Below are positions 22,534 through 63,386 of a stretch of 64,000 nucleotides of DNA, in pieces. The stretch covers positions 642,172-706,171 of the forward strand of contig OY970358.1 of the NCBI GenBank assembly GCA_963718575.1, read 5' to 3'. The notes under the pieces were generated by a model. That model was given only the letters and a program-made list of their open reading frames with translations. It had not been told where the DNA came from and ran no database searches. A program made the translations under genes and the position numbers. The stretch's first letter is position 1; each line of letters starts with the position of its first letter. This DNA is from an uncultured bacterium (GTDB lineage Bacteria; Patescibacteriota; Minisyncoccia; UBA6257; 2-01-FULL-56-20).

Positions 22534-22835
22534 ATGGCGATCATCGTTGAAGAAAGCGAAAAAAAGAGCAATCTGTTCGGCATCGTCGGATGGCTGGTCT
22601 TTTTGGCGATCGCCGGCGCGGCAGTCTATTATCTGTTTTTTGCGCAACCGCAGCTGGTGACCATCCCCGCATCGGGGACGCTTGGCTACGATCGCGCCCA
22701 TCGCGCAGATATCCTTGCAACCGCAGACGGTGGTGCAGGGTCCGGAGTTTTCTGGCGCTGACCTCCACGATCGCATTGCCAACGCCGCAAGGCCCGGCGC
22801 CGGTCGGGCGGACCGATCCGTTCGTCGCACCCTAG
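22534..22835 (+). CDS. Small membrane pilus-assembly-like protein, split over three frames (frameshifts)
   Basis: TM helix LFGIVGWLVFLAIAGAAVYYLFF. The downstream frames continue to ...RTDPFVAP with stop at 22833-35. Confidence 0.3.
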
Positions 22836-22955
22836 CATTATATTGCCACACCCTTTCTGAGGGACGCGTCGCGGTCTGCTGACCGCGCGCTTACTCTCGC
22901 CGCCTGCGCGGATCCGAGATGCCCCCAGAAAGGGTGTGGCAATATAATGCTAGGG
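22830..22955 (+). repeat. Hairpin repeat element copy A: 30-bp perfect inverted repeat enclosing a conserved core
   Basis: Arms 22830-22859 and 22926-22955 (CTAGCATTATATTGCCACACCCTTTCTG / reverse complement). The core begins GGGACGCGTCGCGGTCTGCTGACCGCGCGCTTAC, shared with copies at 57017, 58009, 62509 and 62662. Confidence 0.7.
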
Positions 22956-57016: not shown

Positions 57017-57130
57017 CAACAACAAAAAGAATATACCCCAAAGGGACGCGTCGCGGTCTGCTGACCGCGCGCTTACGCTCGGCACCTTCGTGCCTCCGCG
57101 AAACCCTTTTGGGGTATATTCTTTTTGTTG
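57017..57130 (+). repeat. Hairpin repeat element copy B (27-bp IR with one bulge + conserved core), abutting the tRNA-Pro 3' end
   Basis: Arms ACAACAAAAAGAATATACCCCAAAGGG / CCCTTTTGGGGTATATTCTTTTTGTTG. Core ACGCGTCGCGGTCTGCTGACCGCGCGCTTACGCTCGGCACCTTCGTGCCTCCGCGAAA. Confidence 0.7.
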
Positions 57131-57283
57131 CCTGTTTGTTCGATGGGAATCGAACGGCGGAGGGGGTCGGGGAACCGCGGTTGGTTCCCCGTGCTGGAGG
57201 CATTCGGAACCGAGGGTTCCGAAAAACGAGCGGAGCGAGTGTGTGAGCTTCCCGGCGGCCCGACTGATAAAATATAATTTCGA

Positions 57284-57321
57284 ATAAAAATGCGCCGGGC
57301 TTCCATGGGGAAGCCCGGCGC
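57284..57321 (-). terminator. Strong hairpin terminator (13-bp stem) on the minus strand
   Basis: GCGCCGGGCTTCC atgg GGAAGCCCGGCGC followed by a T-run on the minus strand. Confidence 0.5.
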
Positions 57322-57330
57322 GGGCAAGGA

Positions 57331-57500
57331 TCAAAGACAGCTTCTTTTCGGAAAGGTCTTCCCTTGTTTTTTAGCTTTATGGATGTAAGAAACGACATAC
57401 AGATATGCAGACAACGATGTCACCGCTACGAGAATAACAAACGCGGAGACGGCTTTTTGTAGCCAGAGAGAAAGCTCAGGCGGGAGATGAAATGGGTGCA
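57331..57500 (-). CDS. Small hypothetical membrane protein (56 aa)
   Basis: ATG 57500 with SD AAGGAGG; one TM helix (AFVILVAVTSLSAYLYVV); the ORF extends to 57660. Confidence 0.3.
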
Positions 57501-57602
57501 TATTGGAGGCCTCCTTCGGGCGGCTTCCTATAGAATGCCACAACCATGGGGAAAGTAAATGTACTGGATTTGGGTGGCTTTTGGCGCGCCACCATAGAGC
57601 TA

Positions 57603-57630
57603 TTGACATCCTTTTCGAGCCGAGTATACT
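57603..57630 (+). promoter_or_regulatory. Strong sigma70-type promoter TTGACA-16-TATACT (candidate 23S-5S rRNA operon promoter)
   Basis: TTGACA at 57603-08 and TATACT at 57625-30. A hairpin + T8 terminator-like structure follows at about 57712-57742. Confidence 0.45.
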
Positions 57631-58008
57631 TACTCCTAAGATACGAATGGTAAAGAACACTAATCTTTCACAGCAAGACGGCTGACCGCGCGTATTTTAC
57701 GCGATGGACCAAGCCGCTCTGCGGCCGATTTTTTTTCTGGGCATAGTATCTTCAAATGCTGCGTTGGTCGCCTCTTGGGCGACGGCGGCATCTGGCAGTG
57801 TTATTTAAAATCATCTGCCGATTTGGTGGAACTCCGAATTGTAGAGTCGGAGGACATAATATGGAGACTCTGTGTCACTAATTTAGGTTCTGCGATCTCC
57901 GCTCGGTGACGAGCGAGGAAAGCCGGGCCCGTGCATACGCATATGTACGCAATTTCTCGTGGCAAGTCAGAGTCAAATCAGTGATGAAATTTATTTTATC
58001 ACTGGCAA

Positions 58009-58115
58009 GTGTTGTACACCCCTTTGAAGGGCGTCGCGGAGGCACGAAGGTGCCGAGCGCCAAGGCGGCCGGTCAGCAGGCCGGAACGCCGTCCCTGCAA
58101 AGGGGTGTACAACAC
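58009..58115 (+). repeat. Hairpin repeat element copy C (core inverted relative to B/D), immediately 5' of the 23S rRNA
   Basis: Arms GTGTTGTACACCCCTTTGAAGGG / CCCTGCAAAGGGGTGTACAACAC (1 mismatch). Core CGTCGCGGAGGCACGAAGGTGCCGAGCGCCAAGGCGGCCGGTCAGCAGGCCGGAACGCCGTC. Confidence 0.7.
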
Positions 58116-58689
58116 GAGCAAGTCAGCATTGGGATGGTTGGCAAATAAGGGCGAACGGTGGATGCCTAGACTAGAAAAGGCGATGAAGGACGTGGCGTAG
58201 CAACGAAATGCCTCGGGGAGATGCGTAGCAATCTACGATCCGGGGATGTCCGAATGGGGAAACCTAGTTGAGTAACCCTCAATTGTTTCGACGCAAGTCG
58301 ATTCGCGTACCCGCTGAAGTAAAACATTCCAGTAAGCGGAGGAAAAAAGAACAAATCAGTTATTCCCCAAGTATCGGCGAGAGAACAGGGAACAGCCCAA
58401 ACTAAGGTTGTGATTTATTTCGCAACGTTAGGGTATAGTCTAAAGACGCTGTTTAGTAAATAACGTAGCGCGCTCCTTAAAAAAGTGCGTTTCGTTATTT
58501 GCTATTCGTGAAGGAGTAAAAAAATCATATGTTAGCCAAAGTCGTCTGGAAAGCGACGCCAGAGCGGGTGATAGCCCCCTAGGCGAAAACATTTGGTCTC
58601 CTTAGTTTTTTAACTTGAGTACTTCGGAGTAAAACAGTTCCGGAGGAATATGCCTGTACTATCAGGTAAGGCTAAATACTTTTCTAGAT

Positions 58690-58726
<37 letters not shown>

Positions 58727-60442
58727 CAGGCCGGTGAGGCCGTTGAAATAGAACCTGAAACCGTTTGTCTACAAGGAATTGAACCACGAACGGCTTCCCG
58801 CAAGGGAGGACGAGTGGAACAATGTGCCTATTGAAGAATGATCCAACGACTTATTTTGTGTTGCTTGTCTAAGCGCGCATAGCGTGAAGGCGTAGCGAAA
58901 GCGAGTCTGAATAGGGCGCATGTCTCCCCTTAAAAGGAGATCGCAGCACAAGATAGACCCGAAGCGTTATGAGCTTGCCTTGGCCAGGGTGAACTCCCGA
59001 GAAATCGGGAGGGAGGCCCGAACCGGTTGATTGTTCAAAATCTTCGGATGAGCTGAGGTAAGGAGTGAAAAGCTAATCGAATAACGTAATAGCTGGTTCT
59101 CTCCGAAACAGTTTTAGGACTGGCGGCAAGAGTTCCTCTTGGGGGTAGAGCACTGGATGATCGTTACAGGGGGAAACTCCGAACGATCAATCAAACTCCG
59201 AATACCGAGAGTCAAGATCTTGCTAGTTAGACTGCGGGGGCTAAGCTCCGTGGTCGCGAGGGGAAGAGCCCAGATCGTCATCTAAGGTCCCTAAATTCAT
59301 GCTAAGTGTTAAAGGTAGTCATAACCCATAGACAGATAGGAGGTTGGCTTAGAGGTAGCCATCCTTTAAAGAGTGTGTAACAACTCACTATTCGACGGGT
59401 CGTGGCGCCGAAAATGTACCGGGGCTAAGCATGATACCGAAGATACGAATGTATACTTCCTTCGGGAGGTGTACGTGGTAGGAGAGCATTTCGGCCTGCA
59501 GTGAAGGTCAACCCGCGAGGGTGACTGGAGCGGCCGGAAGAGAAAATGTTGGAATGAGTAACCACAATCCCAATGAGAAATTGGAACCCCGAAAATCCAA
59601 GGTTTCCGTGGCACTGGCAATCAACCACGGGTTAGGCGGTCCTAAGGCGATGGCGAAAGCCGCAGTCGATGGGAAGCTGGTTAATACTCCAGCCCGGCCG
59701 TACGATCATAACTAGAGGACAAAGGAGATAAGCAGATGTGCCTTATTGGTTTGGCATTCTTTGTACTAAGCTCACGCGTGTACCGAGAGAAGGTTAAGAA
59801 TTTACTTAGTCGACATCTGTGAAGTGCCTTTCGAGAAAAATCTGGCCAAATCGAGCGTAAGGTCTCCGTACCGTAAACCGACACTGGTGGATAGGGCGAG
59901 TAGCCCAAGGGGAACGAGTGATTCATCGTTAAGGAACTAGGCAAAATAGCGGCCGTAAGTTAGCAATAAGGCCTGCCCTCGCAAGAGGGCCGCAGCTAAA
60001 GAATCTCTGGCGACTGTTTACCAAAAACACAGCTCCCTGCCAACTCGCAAGAGGATGTATAGGGGGTGACACCTGACCGATGCGAGAAGGTCAAGATTGG
60101 GGGTGGTATGGAGCAATCTGTACTGCTCACTGATTCAAGCCCTCGTCAATGTCAGCGATAACTATGAACAACATTGTAGTTGTAAAATTTGGCTATATGC
60201 TGGAATAACCGTTAGTATCCGGCGCTACTCGAAAGAGTGACAATGCGTCCGGTGCGGTCAATCAGCAGGAAAGGCCTCGATAATTATTATTGAGGAATCC
60301 TCAGAGACTACACGCCAGACCCTAAAATATTTAGGGATGATATAGTCCGAACTATATGGCGACATATAGAGTTGTTCGCGAAGTGCGAGCAGAATAACAT
60401 ACTTGAATCGTTCTAAGGTAGCGCAATTCCTTTTCGGGTAAG

Positions 60443-61168
60443 GTAACTTGCCCCTTTACGCCGCGAGGTGTATTGAAACAGCTGGCTCATAACGGTGAAG
60501 TCCTAAATTTTAGATAAATTTAATGTCTGATTGTTTAGGATAATACCGTGGGAAGTCCATTGATTAAAAATCAAAATGACCCCGTAACGACTTCGTCCTG
60601 CAAGGGACGTAATGAGGTGGTTTTGACCCCTCATTATACGCCGGCTTCTTCAGAAGGAGAGAGAAGAAACATAGCGGAATATATAACCGGTTATGTTGAT
60701 GGTGAAGGATGTTTTACGGTTACGTTCAATACAAAACCAAAAGCTTTGCTTGAATGGGAATTCAGGCCGAGTTTTTCGGTAAGTCAGAACGAAGATCGCC
60801 GTCAGGTTCTCGATCTCATGAGAAACTATTTCGGATGTGGTTTTATCCGCCGTGATTGGAGTGATAAGACCGTAAAGTTCGAAGTACGAGATCATAAGAA
60901 TTTGATGACAAAAATTATTCCTCATTTCGAGAAGTTTCCTCTTATTTCGGCAAAGAACAATGATTTCAAATTATTCAAAACAATTTGTCGCATTGTCGAC
61001 TCGCAGAAACATTTAAGTAAGGCTGGATTTATAGAAGTTATAAATCTTGCTTATCAAATGAATGGCTCTGGTAAAAGAAAAAGAGCAAAAGAAGAAATCA
61101 TCCAATCTCTTTTTGAAGATAAAGATATAGTCTGATCCTCACCGTAAGGTGAGATAACACGGATGAAG
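60443..61168 (+). mobile_element. Intron in 23S rRNA (domain IV region, E. coli about 1917-1931) carrying a LAGLIDADG homing endonuclease ORF; probably group I
   Basis: Exon junction GGGTAAG | GTTCCGAAGCGCACGAAAGG restores the conserved 23S sequence. The junction is ambiguous by 1 nt. Confidence 0.6.
60548..61135 (+). CDS. LAGLIDADG homing endonuclease (intron-encoded)
   Basis: ITGYVDGEGCF motif; the start codon is uncertain (GTG 60548 or a later non-ATG). Confidence 0.8.
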   Translation: MGSPLIKNQNDPVTTSSCKGRNEVVLTPHYTPASSEGERRNIAEYITGYVDGEGCFTVTFNTKPKALLEWEFRPSFSVSQNEDRRQVLDLMRNYFGCGFIRRDWSDKTVKFEVRDHKNLMTKIIPHFEKFPLISAKNNDFKLFKTICRIVDSQKHLSKAGFIEVINLAYQMNGSGKRKRAKEEIIQSLFEDKDIV

Positions 61169-61817
61169 TTCCGAAGCGCACGAAAGGTGTAACGACCGGA
61201 GAACTGTCTCAACGATGAGCTCGGTGAAAATGCGATTCCCGTGAAGACGCGGGATACCTGCAGCGGGACGAAAAGACCCCGGAAGCTTTACTGCAGCTTG
61301 GCATTGATTTTAGAGTTTTACTACGTAGCGTAGTGGTGAGGATTTGAAGCGTCGCTCTCGGGTGACGTGGATCCGACAATGAAACAGCCATTTTTAAAAC
61401 TTTAACGTCTAACTGGTAACGAACCCTTCGGGGAAGCGTTGCTAAGACAGTGCTTGGTAGGCAGTTTAAATGGGGCGTTTTCCTCCAAAAGAGTAACGGA
61501 GGAGTTTATTAAGGTCAGCTTAGCCCGGATGGAAATCGGGCAGGACGTGCAAACGCAAAAGCTGGCTTGACTGCAAGTCCTACAAGACGAGCAGGTGCGA
61601 AAGCAGAAGTTAGTGACCCGACGGCCCTTCATAGAAAGGCCGGAGACACCGGATAAAAGCTACTCCGGGGATAACAGGCTAGTATTGTCCGAGCGTCCCT
61701 AGCGACGACAATGCTCGGCACCTCGATGTCGGCTCGCCACAGCGCGGGGGTGTAGAAGCTCCCAAGCGTTTGGCTGTTCGCCAATTAAAGTGGCACGTGA
61801 GCTGGGTTCAGACCGTC

Positions 61818-62202
61818 AACAAGATAACCCAATCGAAGGTAACGAAGCGAAAGCGGAAACTGTTAAAAAAGAAGAAACGGCGGCCCAGGAAAGCAATTTC
61901 CTGGAGTGAAGCCTTGCATTCAAGTCTGTCATTCGTCCGACAAATCGCAAGGCAAGAAAATCGACTCATATCGGTGAAGTCCTTACTTGGTTTAGACCTG
62001 AACCATGAGGATAATACCGAGGGAAGTCGTGCATGGAGTTATGGAATTTATTTTATGCATTGACCCCTTAGAGACTTAGCGCGTAAGCGCTGGAGTCCGG
62101 CAATCGTGCCGGGCTAACACGTCGGTCATCTTACTAAATTCATTTTTAGCGAGATGGTGGTATAGTCCAACCCGCCAGTAATGGCGATGAAGAATAAGTT
62201 GC
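61818..62202 (+). mobile_element. Second, ORF-less intron in 23S rRNA (E. coli about 2593-2596 region, the I-CreI-type site)
   Basis: Exons GAGCTGGGTTCAGACCGTC | GTGAGACAGGTCGGTCTCTATCTGC are contiguous in the conserved 23S sequence. Shares the motif AGGATAATACCG(T/A)GGGAAGTC with intron 1. Confidence 0.5.
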
Positions 62203-62343
62203 GTGAGACAGGTCGGTCTCTATCTGCTGCAGGCGTGAAATACTTGAGGGGAGTTGACCTTAGTACGAGAGGACTGGGTTGAACATACCTCTGGTCTACC
62301 GGCTTTGCTACCAAGTGAATTGCCGGGTAGCTATGTATGGAAG

Positions 62344-62376
<33 letters not shown>

Positions 62377-62508
62377 CACCCCAAGATTAGGTATGCGTGA
62401 TTTCGTCATAGACTATGACGTTGATAGGCGCTCGGTGTAAGAACAGCAATGTTTTTAGCCAAGGCGTACTAATAATCCCGCCAACCATCCCAATGCTGAC
62501 TTGCATTC

Positions 62509-62614
62509 GATCTGTGTTTGTACTTTGCGGGGACGTGTCACGGTCTGCTGACCGCGCGCTTACGCTCGGCATCTTCGTGCCTTCGCGAAGCCCCTCAAAG
62601 CACAAACACAGATC
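62509..62614 (+). repeat. Hairpin repeat element copy D, immediately 3' of the 23S rRNA
   Basis: Arms GATCTGTGTTTGTACTTTGCGGGG / CCCCTCAAAGCACAAACACAGATC (2 mismatches). Core ACGTGTCACGGTCTGCTGACCGCGCGCTTACGCTCGGCATCTTCGTGCCTTCGCGAAG. Confidence 0.7.
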
Positions 62615-62661
62615 TCATTTCTGATCTACAATCAGAAATCCAAACAAAAAGGCGGCGGGGC

Positions 62662-62778
62662 GCTGCTCATATTTTTGTGTTTCGAAGAGTGTCTCGGAGC
62701 CGCGAAGGCGGCGAGAGCCAAGGCGGCCAGCCAGTAGGCTGGAACGCCGTCCCTGAGAAATATAAAAATATGAGCAGC
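62662..62778 (+). repeat. Hairpin repeat element copy E (core inverted), in the 23S-5S spacer
   Basis: Arms GCTGCTCATATTTTTGTGTTTC / GAAATATAAAAATATGAGCAGC (2 G.U positions). The core is related to C with compensatory stem changes. Confidence 0.65.
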
Positions 62779-62795
62779 ACCACGAACGGCTTTTT

Positions 62796-62916
62796 GATGT
62801 CGGTGCTTCATTCGGGCGTGCCCCACCTCTTCCCATTCCGAACAGAGAAGTGAAAGCGTCCCAATCCCATGATACTTGCGGGTTCGCCTGCGGGGAAAGT
62901 AGGATGTGCCGACATC
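62796..62916 (+). rRNA. rrf: 5S ribosomal RNA
   Basis: CCCACCTCTTCCCATTCCGAACAGAGAAGTGAAAGC...GGGAAAGTAGGATGTGCCGAC; terminal helix GTCGGTG/GTGCCGAC. Confidence 0.85.
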
Positions 62917-62945
62917 AAAGTGCCGTTAAAGATAATTGATAAAAA

Positions 62946-62990
62946 GAAAGACGCTGCGCATTAATTTGCGTGGCGTCTTTTTGTTTTGCG
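62946..62990. terminator. Bidirectional terminator between 5S rRNA and the convergent gene
   Basis: AAAGACGC ... GCGTCTTT stem flanked by A-run and T-run. Confidence 0.5.
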
Positions 62991-62993
62991 GCA

Positions 62994-63386
62994 CTACGGC
63001 TCGATCCATGTCGCATAGGCGGCGATGAGGGGATTCCCAGATCGGTCAATAAACTCGCTTGCCCTGCTAACCGTCCATCCTTTGACAGCAGAGGAACTCG
63101 GTCGGATTTTGTATCGTGCCCGGTCTTCTTCTTGGGATGCTTCGGAATATAGCAACAGTTCTAGAGCCATCGCTCGCTGGTTAAGTTGGCAAGGGAGCGG
63201 GTTACTTCCGGCAAACACTTCTTTTCCTAAAAGTCGGATAGAGCAATCCATTCCCGAAATTGGTTTTACGTGGCCAAAGTACGGTCCAACCTTTCCGCCG
63301 CTGGCAAATAGAAGACATTCAGTCAGTGTTGAAAGGTCATACCCTTGACCAATGACATACGACGGAGCTAAAAGGATTTCTATCAT
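62994..63386 (-). CDS. Hypothetical protein (130 aa)
   Basis: ATG 63386 with strong SD GGAGG 8 nt upstream; no recognizable motif. Confidence 0.5.
   Translation of the reverse strand: MIEILLAPSYVIGQGYDLSTLTECLLFASGGKVGPYFGHVKPISGMDCSIRLLGKEVFAGSNPLPCQLNQRAMALELLLYSEASQEEDRARYKIRPSSSAVKGWTVSRASEFIDRSGNPLIAAYATWIEP

Follow-up and report, generated by a model that had tools for sequence, protein, structure and literature searches.

Within a 64,000-nucleotide (nt) stretch of contig OY970358.1, from the assembly GCA_963718575.1 of an uncultured bacterium, lies a 23S ribosomal RNA (rRNA) gene that is interrupted by three insertions and accompanied by a 5S rRNA gene. We refer to this whole stretch as the window and count positions from its first letter. 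The insertions, which we interpret as group I introns with paired regions (P) and joining segments (J), are named after the Escherichia coli 23S position that precedes them (L1917, L1951, L2593), whereas related loci from other genomes carry three-digit handles (L002 and so on). The features of the locus are as follows.

58135..62489 (+): 23S rRNA gene; Rfam RF02541, 2096.3 bits, model positions 1-2925
60166..60405 (+): predicted group I intron L1917; 240 nt, without an open reading frame (ORF); RF00028 65.7 bits, E 1.5e-15
60406..60439 (+): exon between the L1917 and L1951 introns; 34 nt, E. coli 1918-1951
60440..61165 (+): predicted group I intron L1951; 726 nt; RF00028 46.8 bits, E 6.9e-10
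60486..60557 (+): predicted P4-P5...P5'-P4'-P6 core of the L1951 intron, holding both blocks shared with the L2593 intron
60548..61135 (+): ORF for a predicted single-domain LAGLIDADG homing endonuclease; 195 amino acids (aa) from a GTG; PF00961
61817..62201 (+): predicted group I intron L2593; 385 nt, ORF-less; RF00028 34.8 bits, E 2.9e-06
61965..62028 (+): predicted P4-P5...P5'-P4'-P6 core of the L2593 intron, with shared blocks at 61965-61988 and 62008-62028
62799..62914 (+): 5S rRNA gene; Rfam RF00001, 58.5 bits; 310 nt 3' of the 23S gene

In a pairwise MAFFT alignment, in which the window 23S gene and E. coli K-12 rrlB are 67% identical across aligned columns, the insertions immediately follow E. 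coli positions 1917 (within the helix 69 loop sequence), 1951 and 2593; the L1951 site of E. coli itself is empty. An earlier note on this DNA had described two introns, of 726 nt and of 385 nt, the latter ORF-less. Both are real, with the lengths and coding status claimed, and the second does lie at 2593, but the first follows 1951 instead of falling at 1917-1931, and the MAFFT alignment and the Rfam group I matches give the gene three introns. The third is what the note had listed as a further insertion of ~250 nt at ~60115-60365; it measures 240 nt and occupies 60166-60405. The proposed cut points were also off, the true boundaries lying 3 nt (60440-61165) and 1 nt (61817-62201) upstream. 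We chose these boundaries by the group I rules of an exonic U at -1 and a terminal G, and the shift leaves the lengths unaffected, since both junctions contain repeats (AAG and C). With its introns the 23S gene spans 4355 nt, and ~3004 nt would be left after removal of all three.

Group I architecture of the three insertions

We consider it very probable that all three insertions are group I introns, that one of them carries a LAGLIDADG endonuclease gene, and that a motif shared by two of them represents the P4-P6 core. The intron class, previously left open, was assigned with the Rfam covariance model RF00028, whose matches cover the full length of the model in all three introns and are strongest for the L1917 intron. 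A group II intron was ruled out, since no domain V/VI model matched in 58000-63000, an interval for which Rfam reported no group II family at E values up to 10. Each intron is preceded by an exonic U and ends in G (G60405, G61165, G62201), and in each the P1 helix contains the expected U-G wobble (U60165-G60176, U60439-G60450 and U61816-G61880). In the L1917 intron, which has an extended P5 and no P2, exon AACUAU pairs with the internal guide GUAGUU (60176-60181). The L1951 intron has an IA-like architecture in which P7 is separated from the 3' strand of P3 by two additional hairpins, P7.1 and P7.2; in its P1, GGGU-AAG (the hyphen marking the junction) pairs with CUUGCCC beneath a GUAA loop cap, and the intron-less target context reads GGGT-AAGTTCCGA. 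P7.1 and P7.2 recur at the same place in the L2593 intron, together with P2 and P2.1, and here the guide GGCGGCC (61879-61885) pairs with exon GACCGU. We envision that after transcription each intron would fold into a group I ribozyme in which P1 presents the exonic U-G wobble and P3-P9 constitute the guanosine-binding core. Removal would proceed by two transesterifications, the second of which would use the terminal G, and joining of the exons would yield a 23S rRNA of ~3.0 kb.

How well is this architecture kept in other genomes? A search with the endonuclease as query returned 80 loci from species-representative genomes plus three near-identical assemblies. One near-identical assembly (L002) contains all three introns and has the tRNA-23S-5S layout of the window; the contig of L003 breaks off after the L1917 and L1951 introns, and L004 covers only the L1951 intron. 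Because these independent assemblies agree wherever they cover the region, the locus is not an assembly artefact. Homologous ORFs were found at the L1951 site in 65 cases, and all 65 L1951 introns end in G. When 62 homologous introns from as many loci were compared on a hand-drawn structure, the P1 U-G pair was present in every one, and the guide was seen to covary with the exon (CGGGT/GCCCG, CTGGT/GCCAG, CAGGT/GCCTG). Pair counts support P1, P2, P4, P5, P6, P6a, P7.1, P7.2 and P9; in P2, P6a, P7.1, P7.2 and P9 there are four to six standard pair types per position, with most positions more than 85% paired, and P7 (GACU/AGUC) is invariant. Counts for P8 and P3 are weak and are not relied on, because MAFFT gaps the variable ORF junction.

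The other two sites can be followed through the same loci. The L2593 site is occupied in 29 of them and precisely empty in 25, and all 29 introns are preceded by T and have G as their last base. By flank projection, the L1917 site is empty in L009, L013, L015, L025, L054, L068 and L070. Comparison of the window L2593 intron with those of L005, L013, L014 and L019 shows P7.1, P7.2, P8 and P9 to be kept as hairpins of unrelated sequence. In a MAFFT alignment of 17 ORF-less L2593 introns, those of the window and L005 form a structural subtype different from the bulk; no covariance model was derived from this alignment, in which the window guide is misaligned.

The short ORF-less L2593 introns have features of their own. 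In the alignment of the L022-L064 introns, most are devoid of P7.1 and P7.2, and their long P1 loop contains a conserved ACAGTCTGAACCC that is complementary to the upstream exon GGGTTCAGAC. This pairing overlaps exon bases to which the guide CACGGCGGTC pairs as well. The window L2593 intron has no ACAGTCTGAACCC element.

Several points weigh against the group I interpretation or parts of it. The gathering score of RF00028 is 50 bits, which only the L1917 intron passes, the L1951 (46.8 bits) and L2593 (34.8 bits) introns falling below it. P1 of the L2593 intron includes one A-C mismatch and an unusually long, A-rich loop of ~60 nt. Since the endonuclease served as the query for collecting loci, the sample of close relatives includes no empty L1951 site. 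The endonuclease ORF lacks an ATG and offers several candidate starts. Finally, we infer guanosine-dependent self-splicing with exon ligation from the predicted structures and from the literature on Coxiella and the Candidate Phyla Radiation (CPR). In our view, the sub-threshold scores of the two larger introns are made up for by the support from relatives, in the form of junctions and covariation.

It is conceivable that one intron or two (L2593 would be the first candidate) have decayed and need help in splicing, either from host factors or from the L1951 LAGLIDADG protein in the role of a maturase. The two scores below threshold would fit such a state, as would the mismatch and the long unstructured loop in L2593 P1 and the absence of an endonuclease gene from two of the introns; maturases of the LAGLIDADG type do occur in fungal mitochondria. 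We nevertheless regard decay as unlikely, given that core elements and pairings are intact and that the window and L005 have the same structure although many bases are substituted between them. Efficient removal of every intron would be required, because CPR bacteria usually have a single 23S copy (PMC11270868).

The shared core motif and the nature of the insertions

The L1951 and L2593 introns share the motif AGGATAATACCG(T/A)GGGAAGTC at 60537-60557 and 62008-62028, identical at 20 of 21 positions (2 matches vs 0.00 expected in 100 shuffles). A shared motif had been reported before, and it exists, although it is 21 nt long rather than the 24 nt given for 60538-60562 and 62011-62034. The two introns share a second block, CTCATA(A/T)CGGTGAAGTCCT..., at 60486-60509 and 61965-61988 (21/24 identical). 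In the Rfam alignments this second block corresponds to P4-P5 and the 21-nt motif to P5'-J5/4-P4'-P6, that is, to the catalytic core. Outside the core the two introns have nothing in common, P2, the P5 and P6 loops, P7.1, P7.2, P8 and P9 being without shared sequence.

The earlier note took the motif to suggest a common origin of the two copies. This reading is not supported, since the motif is the core of one intron subgroup: with up to three mismatches the 21-mer occurs in 76 of 84 related loci, often two to four times per 23S gene, and its carriers include CPR, Actinomycetota, Dormibacterota and Chloroflexota. It is because of this spread across phyla and rRNA sites that we regard it as the mark of a group I intron subgroup. 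Its variants follow the insertion site, ACCGAGGG being characteristic of L2593 introns and ACCGTGGG of L1951 introns, and a recent duplication within the genome is unlikely because each window intron groups with introns of its own site. Some 23S genes contain three or four core motifs (L011, 3.9 kb, as well as L006, L008, L021, L037, L039 and L062); these genes therefore have additional group I introns of this subgroup at other positions.

Ectopic transposition, by which the L2593 intron would recently have derived from the L1951 intron of the same genome, could account for the near-identity of the two shared blocks (20/21 and 21/24) and for the presence of P7.1 and P7.2 in both introns. We consider it very unlikely. 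The likeness is confined to the universally conserved core while all peripheral helices differ, and in many genomes L2593 introns typically show the A variant (ACCGAGGGAAG), whereas L1951 introns have T. In addition, L2593 introns bearing P7.1 and P7.2 are found in other genomes and in cyanobacteria (PMC1995217).

Might the ORF-less insertions instead be intervening sequences, excised by RNase III without religation to leave a fragmented 23S rRNA? Such sequences are known in bacterial 23S genes, probably including those of CPR (PMC11270868; PMC4990558), and long perfect stems are present around the window 23S gene. The known examples, however, lie elsewhere, in helix 45 in Coxiella (PMC4990558) and as 23IS2 and 23IS4 in CPR (PMC11270868). 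Moreover, they are simple stems without a ribozyme core, whereas P3-P9, a terminal G and P1 guide pairing are present here, and we hold this explanation to be extremely improbable.

The three insertion sites are the helix 69 loop, the conserved GGGUAAGUUCCGA stretch and a position beside the peptidyl-transferase centre, and large inserts retained at those ribosomal positions would be disruptive. Lineage-specific expansion segments kept in the mature 23S rRNA, for which one might cite small expansions elsewhere in the gene (e.g., ~110 nt at 58402-58527), accordingly have next to no probability: all three insertions combine a complete group I core with the U/G junction rules, the L1917 and L2593 sites are empty in related genomes, and removal from transcripts has been reported for CPR insertions (PMC11270868), which bears out the view that these are introns.

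An endonuclease reading frame within the L1951 ribozyme

The 726-nt intron was previously thought to encode a LAGLIDADG endonuclease, and a hidden Markov model check agrees: PF00961 (LAGLIDADG_1) scores 89 bits against a cut-off of 23.1, with one copy at residues 46-147. ITGYVDGEG forms residues 46-54, and an alignment of 19 homologues shows no variation at D51, G52, E53 or G54; by analogy, the conserved acidic residue of the motif presumably has a catalytic role. Two-domain proteins of the I-OnuI, I-PanMI and I-CpaMI type in the PDB are matched by the query in each half (E 1e-36). The closest of 899 endonuclease homologues come from Parcubacteria metagenome-assembled genomes (MAGs). We envision that the protein, as a homodimer, would cut intron-less 23S rDNA at L1951, after which the intron would be copied in by double-strand-break repair. 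The L1917 and L2593 introns, having no endonuclease gene, would be immobile passengers or relics. Activity, specificity and start codon of the enzyme are predictions from sequence.

The L1951 intron with its endonuclease family was also observed in 23S genes labelled, as MAGs, Actinomycetota, Acidimicrobiia, Thermoleophilia, Dormibacterota, Chloroflexi, Lacipirellulaceae and Proteobacteria (non-CPR carriers L036, L050, L057, L060-L061, L063, L065-L067, L069, L071-L076 and L079-L084). Because it is carried by those other phyla, the family is far from CPR-specific in soil metagenomes. A blastn search of the PLSDB plasmids gave no match to the L1951 intron.

Where does translation start? The ORF fills P8 of the L1951 intron and overlaps the ribozyme at both ends. 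Codons 1-38 double as P4', P6, P7, P7.1, P7.2, P3' and the 5' strand of P8, and the C-terminal DKDIV-stop (TGA 61133-61135) doubles as J8/7 and the 3' strand of P7. GTG 60548 has AGGA seven bases upstream; the alternatives are GTG 60617, TTG 60623 and ATA 60671. In the L1951 family as a whole, most ORFs have their initial ATG 15-20 codons ahead of the motif; stops lie upstream of this ATG, and the frame bears no relation to the core. Some homologues start at MRNI directly before the motif; GTG 60617 and TTG 60623 correspond to the position of the ATG in most family members. The clade to which the window belongs (12 loci: the window and L005-L015) presents another picture. In all 12 loci the core GTG and the LAGLIDADG motif are separated by a multiple of three nt (132-144 nt), the length differences in each of three sub-regions are multiples of three as well, and this stretch contains no stop in the endonuclease frame vs one to five in each other frame. 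Seven clade loci have an ATG in P5' (ATGGAYAATACCGTG), in place of which the window has TAG, so that GTG 60548 is its first possible start.

Because the frame is conserved across the clade, the long ORF overlapping the core is probably real. The open frame and the restriction to indels of 3n in the 12 loci speak against the later start near 60674 proposed before, and the same conservation makes GTG 60548 more likely than GTG 60617, TTG 60623 or ATA 60671. One may go further and suppose that translation starts inside the most conserved element of the ribozyme (AUG in P5' or GUG in P4'), that ~45 codons serve both purposes, and that the resulting N-terminal extension is functional. We consider this combination rather unlikely. 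Such an extension could act in RNA binding, as a maturase, or in coupling translation to splicing; frame conservation in the clade supports its translation and says nothing of its role. ORFs running from peripheral loops into the core are known in bacterial rRNA introns (PMC1995217). The frame of this clade is apparently kept through most of the ribozyme core, which would represent a compact dual constraint from RNA structure and protein coding.

Precedents and the rRNA gene unit

Nothing in the locus is without published precedent, be it from the same lineage or from the same insertion sites. L1917, L1951 and L2593 are classical homing sites in rDNA, and a catalogue of bacterial introns includes those at L1917, L1931, L1951 and L2593 (Haugen et al. 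2007, PMC1995217). Coxiella has introns at L1917 and L1951, as the window does, and because of these two insertion sites both have the same 34-nt internal exon. Its L1951 intron measures 720 nt and contains a 157-aa single-motif LAGLIDADG ORF (PMC1995217), compared with 726 nt and 195 aa from the core GTG in the window, and both Coxiella introns (Cbu_L1917, Cbu_L1951) are spliced from the 23S precursor (PMC4990558). Coxiella is a gammaproteobacterium without an L2593 intron, whereas the window host belongs to CPR and has one; the locus amounts to a Coxiella-like L1917/L1951 pair plus an L2593 intron. Raghavan and colleagues are said to have found, in 2007, that one Coxiella intron has no terminal G, whereas all three window introns end in G.

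A second parallel is the 23S gene of Synechococcus sp. C9, which has three group I introns, at L1917, L1931 and L2593 (PMC1995217), two of these sites being common to the window; the middle intron lies at L1931 there and at L1951 here. Its L2593 intron has P7.1, P7.2 and a short P2 (PMC1995217). All three Synechococcus introns contain endonuclease genes, but only one of the window introns does. The Chlamydomonas chloroplast large-subunit intron that encodes I-CreI, of the single-motif LAGLIDADG homodimer family, likewise sits at L2593, a site that in the window is occupied by an ORF-less intron.

Insertions are common in CPR: 82% of CPR 23S genes contain them (Tsurumaki et al. 2024, PMC11270868), 45% of the insertions are group I introns, about half of these ORF-less, and single-domain LAGLIDADG_1 ORFs concentrate at 1917, 1931, 1952, 2593, 2604 and 2657 (PMC11270868). 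The same study, from whose rRNA insertions the window differs in nothing essential, cites Brown et al. 2015 for removal of insertions from transcripts and uses I-CreI as a structural comparator. It also describes I-ShaI, a CPR enzyme of the same Pfam family that cleaves its own site, dimerises and resembles I-CeuI. By analogy the window endonuclease may cleave site-specifically as a homodimer, with the difference that it sits at L1951, a site not reported for I-ShaI. The locus thus adds one clean long-contig example to the known intron-rich rRNA genes of CPR. In practical terms, the 195-aa ORF is to be read as a mobile-element gene and not as a cellular one, and the mature 23S rRNA as ~3.0 kb instead of 4.36 kb; primers and rRNA callers will mis-size this 23S gene.

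The placement of the host in CPR, within Parcubacteria, is supported despite a G+C content of ~54%, high for CPR. GatA, encoded in the window, shares 72% identity with proteins labelled Minisyncoccia and Paceibacterota, and the best endonuclease relatives belong to Parcubacteria and to unclassified long-read MAGs (~0.9 Mb). An Rfam scan of the 64 kb found five tRNAs, with tRNA-Pro as the nearest RNA gene upstream of the 23S gene, and no match to small-subunit rRNA anywhere in the window, which reaches 58 kb beyond the 23S-5S unit on its upstream side and 1.1 kb on the downstream side. The earlier statement that this unit is unlinked from a 16S gene is thus supported, no 16S gene lying within 58 kb upstream. 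Unlinked rRNA genes are reported to be common in Patescibacteria (bioRxiv 10.1101/705046).

Further features of the unit were noted in passing. In domain I of the 23S gene, ~110 nt at 58402-58527, split into 73 + 38 nt, are additional to E. coli 272-287 in the MAFFT alignment; because the Rfam scan found no group I signal there, they probably represent an expansion or a short intervening sequence. Positions 58118-58142 and 62480-62504, which span the 5' and 3' ends of the 23S gene, are perfectly complementary over 25 nt; they make up the long processing stem that usually encloses 23S rRNA. The 1.1 kb between tRNA-Pro and the 23S gene (57018-58134) contain no convincing ORF, and a near-consensus promoter-like TTGACA-16-TATACT occurs at 57603-57630, the count of such sites being not above that in shuffles.

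A palindromic repeat of ~110-125 nt occurs five times in the window (22830-22952, 57020-57130, 58001-58123, ~62509-62615 and 62656-62784) and is also found in L002, L003 and L005. Four of the copies lie, in alternating orientation, directly after tRNA-Pro, before the 23S gene, after it, and before the 5S gene. The closing stem of 20-30 base pairs varies in sequence between copies while its complementarity is kept, whereas the tip is a conserved Y shape of 65-75 nt with two hairpins, 82-92% alike between copies. The repeats have RNA-fold z-scores of -5.8 to -12.9, with no Rfam match and no strand-specific RNA signature in energy or G-U pairs. A role as processing hairpins is conceivable, as is an origin from a dispersed repeat element.

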